From Escherichia phage Pu-Krd-SF1, in sequence record PQ249395: a stretch of 64,000 nt of DNA; one strand, written 5' to 3'. Of the stretch, positions 4,290 through 4,600 are shown piece after piece. The position numbers and the translations under genes are program-made. The notes beneath the pieces are model-generated. The model ran no database searches. It was not told the DNA's origin and saw only the letters and a list, made by a program, of their open reading frames with translations. The number at the start of each line of letters is the position of its first letter. The stretch's first letter is position 1.

Positions 4290-4600
4290 GAAGCCGGGAC
4301 GCTACCGGCAAGTCGTCGGACTGATGTTCCCTGTTTAAGGACTGGCATTAATAAATCTTTATGTTTTGTTAATGTCCCCTTATATCACAGCAGAAACGGC
4401 GCACCGAATTATCGATTCGAGGAAATATCTTTGCCGTAAGCCGAGTAGCGTTTTTGACGGAACGTTCGGATATGGTCGAGATATGGCCTTTTAAAAATAT
4501 TGAGTAGCGTCAACTACTTAATAACCGGGTTCAAGTCCCGGCGTTTCGTACAAACACTTGCCTTAGCAGGTGGAACCCCGACAAGGTTGCCGCAAGGCTT
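4290..4600 (+). ncRNA. structured non-coding RNA region (positional equivalent of T4 stable RNAs C/D)
   Basis: Follows tRNA-Arg; tRNA-like T-arm CCGGGTTCAAGTCCCGG near 4527-4543; no convincing ORF; ends at a terminator. Confidence 0.4.

Follow-up and report, generated by a model that had tools for sequence, protein, structure and literature searches.

Orthologues of the T4 stable RNAs rnaD and rnaC end the tRNA operon of Escherichia phage Pu-Krd-SF1, with folds backed by covariation

The rnaC and rnaD products of bacteriophage T4 are small stable RNAs that have been described since the 1970s. What these RNAs are, how widely they occur and what they might do for a phage are the questions raised by about 310 nt of DNA in Escherichia phage Pu-Krd-SF1 (sequence record PQ249395). 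A reading made from the sequence alone, without database searches, had singled out positions 4290–4600 as an untranslated, structured region behind a tRNA-Arg gene, probably corresponding to the two T4 RNAs. Throughout, the window is the whole stretch of DNA that was analysed, 64,000 nucleotides of one strand, and it is a segment of a Tequatrovirus genome. Identity over positions 4200–4700 is 100% to Escherichia phage Pu-Krd-SF5 and, where T4 shares the sequence, 94% to T4. A tRNA cluster occupies 2896–3492 on the plus strand (Leu, Gly, Pro, Ser, Thr, a tRNA with the anticodon CAU, and Tyr; ARAGORN and Rfam), and the features from there to the end of the operon are as follows.

3539–4204: GIY-YIG (segB-like) open reading frame, between the group of tRNAs ending in Tyr and tRNA-Arg.
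4210–4284, plus strand: tRNA-Arg(UCU) with an encoded CCA, directly upstream of rnaD (ARAGORN; Rfam tRNA model, 48.8 bits; 75/75 identical to T4 tRNA-Arg).
4286–4405, plus strand: rnaD, orthologue of T4 species 2 RNA (ends transferred from the T4 annotation; alignment).
4412–4550, plus strand: rnaC, orthologue of T4 species 1 RNA (ends transferred from the T4 annotation; alignment).
4555–4572, plus strand: 3' trailer hairpin of 7 bp (fold; in Dhakavirus directly after rnaD).
4601–4629, plus strand: intrinsic terminator of the tRNA operon (terminator scan; fold; annotated as a terminator in relatives).

In the T4 reference record, rnaD ('species 2 RNA', 119 nt) begins one base past tRNA-Arg on the tRNA strand, and rnaC ('species 1 RNA', 139 nt) follows six bases beyond rnaD, ahead of the terminator. 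This synteny is kept in the window, where rnaC likewise stands after tRNA-Arg and rnaD and before the terminator. Colinear alignment with T4 gave 136 identities over the 139 positions of rnaC, 103 identical, 15 mismatched and 3 gapped columns for rnaD, and 47/50 identities for the 3' trailer (4551–4600). By the T4 annotation at the same position and the colinear alignment, 4286–4405 and 4412–4550 are orthologues of T4 rnaD and rnaC, two non-coding RNA genes that end the tRNA operon, which bears out the correspondence proposed in the sequence-only reading. As objects, rnaC and rnaD were already known from T4. The same reading had named an Rfam covariance-model search as a check. Rfam returned no family over the interval, either at gathering thresholds or at permissive E-values; models built for the purpose did match, R1 locating rnaC at 4412–4553 with 160.8 bits and E = 1.6e-37 as its sole match in the 64-kb window, and R2 locating rnaD at 4290–4406 with 135.2 bits. 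The locus is present in about 800 phage records. With any proposal for function left out, we hold the identity, structure class and biogenesis of both RNAs, taken jointly, with high confidence.

The region had also been described as ending at a strong terminator. A terminator was found, with a 10-bp stem containing 7 G-C pairs at 4601–4624 followed by TTTTT in the terminator scan; its first base, 4601, lies one position beyond the 4600 at which the region had been drawn to end. Just 5' of it, the sequence CCCCGAC-AAGGUUG is a shortened copy of the terminator hairpin (4576–4589 compared with 4603–4619), and in vB_EcoM_G9062 and similar relatives an open reading frame of ~470 nt lies between two full copies of the terminator (L003, 1365–1941). 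Given this duplication and the intervening reading frame, the site resembles a recurrent insertion point. Farther downstream, an 11-bp hairpin at 5286–5312 follows a 188-aa open reading frame (4715–5281); the terminator scan reported it on the minus strand only, a short T run follows it on the plus strand too, and it may terminate transcription both ways.

Several observations concern the upstream part of the operon. The tRNA-Gln gene that stands directly upstream of tRNA-Leu in T4 and relatives is absent from the window (region 2257–2895). An open reading frame of ~203–210 aa with a weak Pfam match to HNH endonucleases runs to 2889, seven bases short of tRNA-Leu, and may be a homing-endonuclease insertion replacing tRNA-Gln. 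A tRNA-Tyr(GUA) gene at 3406–3492 has no counterpart in T4. The CAU-anticodon tRNA at 3320–3396 is assigned to Met by ARAGORN and is annotated as tRNA-Ile at the same position in T4 and GiZh. Inside the GIY-YIG reading frame, ~390 nt upstream of tRNA-Arg, an exact late-promoter-like motif, TATAAATA, occurs at 3820–3827; it was given no weight because T4 lacks an exact copy at the equivalent place.

The possibility that the region encodes small proteins draws on the deposited annotations of many relatives, which put coding sequences over the locus, and on the presence of reading frames of 42 aa (4366–4494) and 61 aa (4500–4685). However, these frames start with TTG, the 61-aa frame passes through the terminator, and close relatives differ from one another by 1-nt indels. 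Furthermore, substitutions follow the pattern of a paired RNA, and the T4 products were identified as RNAs. Across 4285–4630 the reading frames on both strands reach at most 61 aa and mostly start with TTG, in agreement with the earlier judgement that the interval holds no credible open reading frame, and we give the protein-coding interpretation almost no credence. In many GenBank phage genomes the rnaC and rnaD positions are either blank or covered by 'hypothetical protein' entries, and one record has 'tRNA-OTHER' over part of rnaC; the coding-sequence and 'tRNA-OTHER' entries look like misannotations of two RNA genes.

To analyze the structure of rnaC, 29 distinct sequences were aligned (A6; an earlier version held 20), and the elements of the RNA are listed here.

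4413–4419, plus strand: 5' strand of the acceptor-like stem, CGAUUCG, pairing with 4542–4548 (CGUUUCG); two invariant U.U mismatches.
4420–4489, plus strand: expanded 'D arm', in which P2 (AGG at 4420–4422 with CCU at 4487–4489) encloses P3–P6.
4454–4459, plus strand: P6 loop UUGACG, kissing partner of 4508–4513; complementary in 29/29 sequences.
4498–4523, plus strand: P7, standing where a tRNA has its anticodon arm, with 10 bp and a loop of 6 nt, CGUCAA (4508–4513); compensatory changes in 9/10 pairs.
4525–4541, plus strand: T arm, CCGGG-UUCAAGU-CCCGG; the third pair covaries (G-C/U-A/A-U/U.G).
4549–4553, plus strand: 3' tail UACAA following the acceptor-like stem; conserved, with UCCAA instead in Marfavirus.

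In the 29 sequences 95.9% of cells are paired and both-sided changes occur in 27/46 pairs; shuffles never reached the observed values, and slid controls yielded at most 8 pairs with double changes. The minimum-energy fold of the single sequence coincides with the consensus structure. That the region is structured, as had been claimed, is also indicated by folding z-scores against shuffles of −4.5 for the rnaC part and −2.9 for the rnaD part, together with compensatory substitutions across genera. The acceptor-like stem follows the consensus CG(A/G)UUCG with CGUU(U/C)CG; its third pair changes from A-U to G-C in 18/29 sequences and the other pairs are invariant. P2 is a 3-bp AGG/CCU helix, a 'D stem' whose loop has grown into an arm of ~65 nt. 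This long arm, P3–P6, closes in the loop UUUGACGR, and P3, P4/5 and P6 each covary. An A-rich linker connects the expanded D arm to P7, and the T arm begins one base after P7 and is joined without a spacer to the 3' strand of the acceptor-like stem.

Set beside the hallmarks of a tRNA, rnaC has the coaxial arrangement of acceptor stem and T arm, in which 4413–4419:4542–4548 abuts 4525–4541 with covariation. It lacks a 7-nt anticodon loop, the corresponding loop being 6 nt long and complementary to the P6 loop, and it lacks an encoded 3' NCCA, the window having UACAA. ARAGORN, the Rfam tRNA model and the Rfam tmRNA model all left rnaC undetected. Comparative evidence thus indicates that rnaC is a tRNA-derived, remodelled cloverleaf without a usable anticodon. 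The T-arm-like motif that had drawn attention to the region, CCGGGTTCAAGTCCCGG, does occur on the plus strand at 4525–4541; the tRNA-like element of which it was taken to be a sign extends over the whole remodelled cloverleaf and is found in rnaC only.

The complementary P6 and P7 loops vary together in the Marfavirus clade, where UUGGCG faces CGCCAA, a compensatory change from A-U to G-C at a long-range pair. We read these loops as forming a predicted intramolecular kiss that would brace the inserted arm against the 'anticodon' arm. A second long-range contact is hinted at by an unpaired UGG at 4484–4486, just 5' of the P2 3' strand, which occupies the position of G18-G19 in the D loop of tRNA. 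In three sequences that have the T loop UGCAUSC in place of UUCRANU, G4485 is changed to C alongside a change of T-loop U55 to G. This co-change fits a tRNA-like elbow contact and is suggestive only, because it is based on one or two evolutionary events, as is the covariation of the kissing loops. Since these three relatives carry the UGCAUSC loop, classical T-loop recognition is not universal in the family. The encoded tail of rnaC has ACA and not CCA in 25/29 sequences, a true CCA occurring solely in the Marfavirus clade, and aminoacylation-type mimicry is therefore unlikely. The junction and tail sequences are unchanged across at least seven genera.

The second RNA, rnaD, shows a different organization, composed of the following elements.

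4293–4309, plus strand: 5' hairpin A, a 5-bp stem with the 7-nt loop GACGCUA; compensatory changes in 3/5 pairs in A7 and 5/5 in A8.
4312–4318, plus strand: 5' strand of the basal helix H1, GUCGUCG, pairing with 4397–4404 (CGGCGCAC); invariant in close relatives.
4319–4333, plus strand: 5' side of the core, comprising the loop GACUGA, H2 (UGUU), the CCC bulge and UG.
4334–4385, plus strand: stem S3 (4335–4339 with 4379–4383) and the hypervariable apical domain; S3 covaries.
4386–4404, plus strand: 3' side of the core, comprising CA, C, AGC-A (H2), the GAAA loop and CGGCGCAC (H1).

The rnaD covariance model was built from 25 sequences. Pairing reaches 95.7%, with double changes in 10/23 pairs; when distant members are included the values are 93.9% and 14/23, with a G-C to C-G switch in H1, and these latter counts lean toward structure because the alignment was fitted to the model. 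The switch in H1 affects its innermost pair and is found in four divergent members. In H2, three of the four pairs covary (U-A/A-U/G-C; G-C/A-U; U.G/A-U/U-A) and the fourth (U-A) is invariant, and the closing pair of hairpin A is G-C in the window and A-U in T4. The core contains a 6 x 4 internal loop, GACUGA/GAAA in Pu-Krd-SF1, whose sequence is not kept in distant members, and a CCC bulge followed by a UG/CA step between H2 and S3. Virtually no variation is seen in the blocks AAGUCGUC, CCCUG and GGCGC, and the apical domain comes in at least five unrelated types among the relatives. Compared with a K-turn, in which tandem sheared G.A/A.G pairs come after a 3-nt bulge and beside a canonical stem, the GACUGA/GAAA loop could form tandem GA/AG pairs in the Tequatro-, Dhaka- and Vequinta-type forms; in the Marfavirus clade a G.A is swapped to A.G, and in other genera the sequence differs. 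Taken together, the comparisons indicate that rnaD opens with a 5' hairpin and continues as a long irregular hairpin, invariant at its base and hypervariable at its tip. Two other pairings were rejected. CUGAUGU:ACAGCAG, which appears in the single-sequence fold, contains variable positions that covary with different partners, and pairing of the rnaD 3' GAAACG with the 3' strand of rnaC is not conserved in Marfavirus, where both RNAs occur.

The core of rnaD also bears on a more specific interpretation, that the RNA is a hammerhead-like ribozyme (CUGA ... GAAA) or a mimic of the CRISPR type I-F repeat (GUUCcCUG ... CAGC.GAAA) acting as an RNA anti-CRISPR. The hammerhead core is CUGANGA / GAAA, and Tequatrovirus rnaD resembles both this core and the I-F repeat consensus in sequence. 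However, the Rfam models gave no match even at E <= 10, and distant family members have not kept the GACUGA/GAAA loop. As a hammerhead, rnaD has a two-way and not a three-way junction, and the G at position '8' is Watson–Crick paired and covarying. As a I-F repeat mimic it would need a CUG:CAG hairpin, against which covariation sets the pairing GUU:AGC of H2. Since GUU:AGC covaries, both the I-F hairpin and the hammerhead G8/A9 are incompatible with rnaD, and we consider either identity extremely unlikely.

Homologues of rnaC reach well beyond Tequatrovirus and in most of the other genera are located within tRNA clusters, a few bases from the neighbouring tRNAs. Karamvirus, Moonvirus and Gelderlandvirus have rnaC flanked by tRNA-Trp and tRNA-Gly, and in Citrobacter phage Ursula an annotated open reading frame also lies between the rnaC homologue and tRNA-Gly. 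Winklervirus carries rnaC between tRNA-Phe and tRNA-Trp and Kanagawavirus behind tRNA-Met, and Marfavirus has it too. Dhakavirus has rnaD joined straight to the same trailer and terminator, and rnaC is absent. Elements like rnaD occur directly 3' of tRNA-Arg, Asn, His, Tyr or Met. The covariance model detected diverged forms directly behind tRNA-Asn in Karamvirus and Moonvirus and behind tRNA-His in Kanagawavirus (CIP9), and also in Marfavirus and an Edwardsiella phage, and the Vequintavirinae phages A5-4 and W70 carry one or two rnaD copies directly after tRNA-Tyr or tRNA-Met. The forms shared with Vequintavirinae have 75–87% identity. rnaC and rnaD are therefore separate modules that travel within the phage tRNA clusters of many T4-like genera, and rnaD has passed between unrelated phage families with enterobacterial hosts in common.

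Diverged rnaD-like RNAs that carry no annotation, recognized by covariance model or nhmmer only, were located at L007 537–635, L006 561–659, L028 106–204, L005 1146–1270, L009 606–703 and 1500–1616, and L024 1500–1597. These rnaD-like loci belong to Karam-, Moon- and Kanagawavirus and to Vequintavirinae and lie immediately 3' of tRNA-Asn, His, Met or Tyr. A metagenome search with the pattern TTCGAGGA ... GGCGTTYCGT proved too loose, returning 120 loci that were nearly all random GC-rich sequence, with L159 as the sole real member. A scan of genome contigs for the rnaD core gave 35 coincidences within coding sequences, 0 of them with the 3' half of the motif.

How the two RNAs are made is best approached from T4, in which one primary transcript of ~1.75 kb takes in the eight tRNAs together with both RNAs and stops past species I RNA (PMC2330249). 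During T4 infection RNAC was seen on a Northern blot, and rnaC and rnaD were classed as late RNAs in a 2022 omics study (PMC9697503). It is probable that the host tRNA-processing machinery frees both RNAs from the polycistronic tRNA precursor. The earlier suggestion that the tRNA-like element may lead to processing of the tRNA type agrees with the placement of rnaC in other genera, a few bases from a tRNA gene on either side. RNase P would make the 5' end of rnaC, guided by the acceptor stem, T arm and elbow; this is most probably the enzyme at that end because these elements are kept and the RNA is located between tRNAs. Elsewhere, endonuclease cuts and 3' exonuclease trimming would produce the ends, with the 3' end of rnaC trimmed back to the helix. 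For its part, rnaD starts immediately behind the 3' end of a tRNA and finishes with a helix, from which we infer, by analogy, the kind of maturation typical of exonuclease-trimmed stable RNAs. Release by tRNA processing would explain the stability of both RNAs.

Another interpretation is that the RNAs have no function in trans and are elements serving processing or stability in cis, or else tRNA genes in decay, surviving as by-products of the maturation of the tRNA operon. Both are always inside or appended to tRNA clusters, rnaC is plainly derived from a tRNA, and it was cleanly lost in Dhakavirus. The whole tRNA region of T4 can be deleted and the phage remains viable on laboratory hosts, and any function of rnaC or rnaD would therefore be conditional. 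Against the by-product interpretation, the elaborate architecture is upheld by compensatory change, including the long-range kiss, the junction and tail sequences are invariant in at least seven genera, and rnaD is swapped between unrelated phage families. Moreover, the T4 RNAs accumulate as abundant stable species (PMC9697503). The RNAs sit inside the cluster in some phages and at its end in others, and this speaks against a role in protecting 3' ends. We regard the by-product interpretation as unlikely.

The earlier remark that no function had been assigned still holds: function is given as unknown in a 2010 review of T4 post-transcriptional control (PMC3014915), in the omics study (PMC9697503) and in a 2025 evolution study (PMC12685909), and our literature searches found no newer functional assignment for rnaC or rnaD. 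In the evolution study, three lines of a T4-like phage that were adapting to a semi-permissive E. coli strain convergently acquired a SNP in rnaD (PMC12685909). In that paper (phage BW-1, 164080–164336) rnaC is placed upstream of rnaD and the SNP is described as 'at the 3' end, position 41'; this gene order is reversed relative to the T4 annotation, in which rnaD precedes rnaC. From the coordinates of the paper we infer that the SNP lies ~73 nt from the 5' end of rnaD, in the variable apical part.

A rival interpretation is that rnaC and rnaD are base-pairing regulatory sRNAs, in which exposed conserved stretches, or the variable tip of rnaD, would pair with host or phage mRNAs. The hypervariable apical domain of rnaD resembles a targeting module, the adaptive SNP (PMC12685909) would fall within it by our placement, and the apical loop at 4350–4362 is complementary over 13 nt to 8061–8073, in a plus-strand open reading frame starting near 8021. 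That complement, however, is AT-rich and probably due to chance, as are the few other complements of 11–13 nt that the window contains. In rnaC the conserved loops match each other and are not free, and the conserved blocks of rnaD sit in helices and internal loops. A blastn comparison of the whole 268-nt locus with 5,426 E. coli genomes (11-base words, with which seeds of 7–12 nt are missed) gave no match at E <= 0.01, which argues against extended complementarity to the host. Regulation of mRNAs by base pairing is thus quite improbable.

The cross-genus conservation of both modules, the sharing with Vequintavirinae and the SNP in rnaD speak for a function that matters to the phage. For rnaD, the invariant base and variable tip, the exchange between families and the convergent SNP favour a host-directed, conditionally useful function. 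We tentatively propose, as a possibility short of probable, that rnaC acts in trans as a non-decoding tRNA mimic and that rnaD is a protein-binding scaffold with an apical module tuned to the host. In this proposal the target of rnaC would be a host factor recognizing tRNA shape or the acceptor end, which the RNA would occupy or titrate; candidates are a tRNA-directed defence nuclease or transferase and a processing or modification enzyme. With all the features by which proteins recognize tRNA shape kept, the anticodon removed, the body locked and the 3' end unchargeable, rnaC has what would be the design of a decoy or competitor for a tRNA-binding factor, and we assign it, with low confidence, to the non-decoding tRNA mimics or decoys. 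A fuller version of the trans-acting proposal is doubtful: that rnaC is a decoy locked in an L shape by its kissing-loop brace, neutralizing a host factor that attacks or senses tRNAs, and that rnaD is a mobile scaffold whose tip is under host-specific selection. If true, rnaC and rnaD would constitute an RNA-based toolkit for host takeover or anti-defence that is carried by phage tRNA clusters.

What is added here to the T4 description is an architecture of both RNAs backed by covariation and a family distribution far wider than annotated. A vague "structured region" has become a set of specific elements that can be mutated, namely the kissing loops, the acceptor stem with its U.U mismatches, the GG/T-loop contact, and the base and tip of rnaD. 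The RNAs themselves would not surprise a T4 specialist; the question of rnaC and rnaD function that dates from the 1970s becomes experimentally approachable.

Among known systems, the tRNA-like domain of tmRNA, YrlA, mascRNA, plant-virus tRNA-like structures and the tRNA-linked RNAs of gammaherpesviruses are tRNA mimics that do not decode. In these mimics an acceptor/T-arm module recruits tRNA-processing enzymes and gives defined, stable ends. Neither by sequence nor by model do they match rnaC. Unlike tmRNA, the locus has no tag open reading frame, and ARAGORN reports no tmRNA and Rfam no match to it. The YrlA match in the window covers real tRNAs and not rnaC or rnaD, and a Ro-binding stem is absent. 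For mascRNA, Rfam gives a match of 15 bits to the T arm of rnaC alone, which is not significant.

Canonical tRNA (RF00005) is the nearer comparison for rnaC. The RNA differs from it in having a sequestered loop of 6 nt and not a 7-nt anticodon loop, a D loop enlarged by ~65 nt, a 10-nt linker in place of nucleotide 26, a tandem U.U in the acceptor stem, and ACA for CCA. Features in common with tRNA are an acceptor stem of seven positions that stacks directly on a T stem of 5 bp, the T loop UUCRANU, a likely elbow between GG and T loop, four arms, and a location in a tRNA operon. The closest system of all is T4 itself. Relative to it, rnaC carries 3 changes, all outside helices (2 in the T loop and 1 unpaired between P4 and P3); rnaD differs in its apical region and at its 3' end, CACCG in the window and CACCA in T4; and the upstream operon of the window has tRNA-Tyr and the HNH-like reading frame and lacks tRNA-Gln. 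The two phages are alike in the order of tRNA-Arg, rnaD, rnaC, trailer and terminator, in the strand, and in the about equal lengths of the RNAs.
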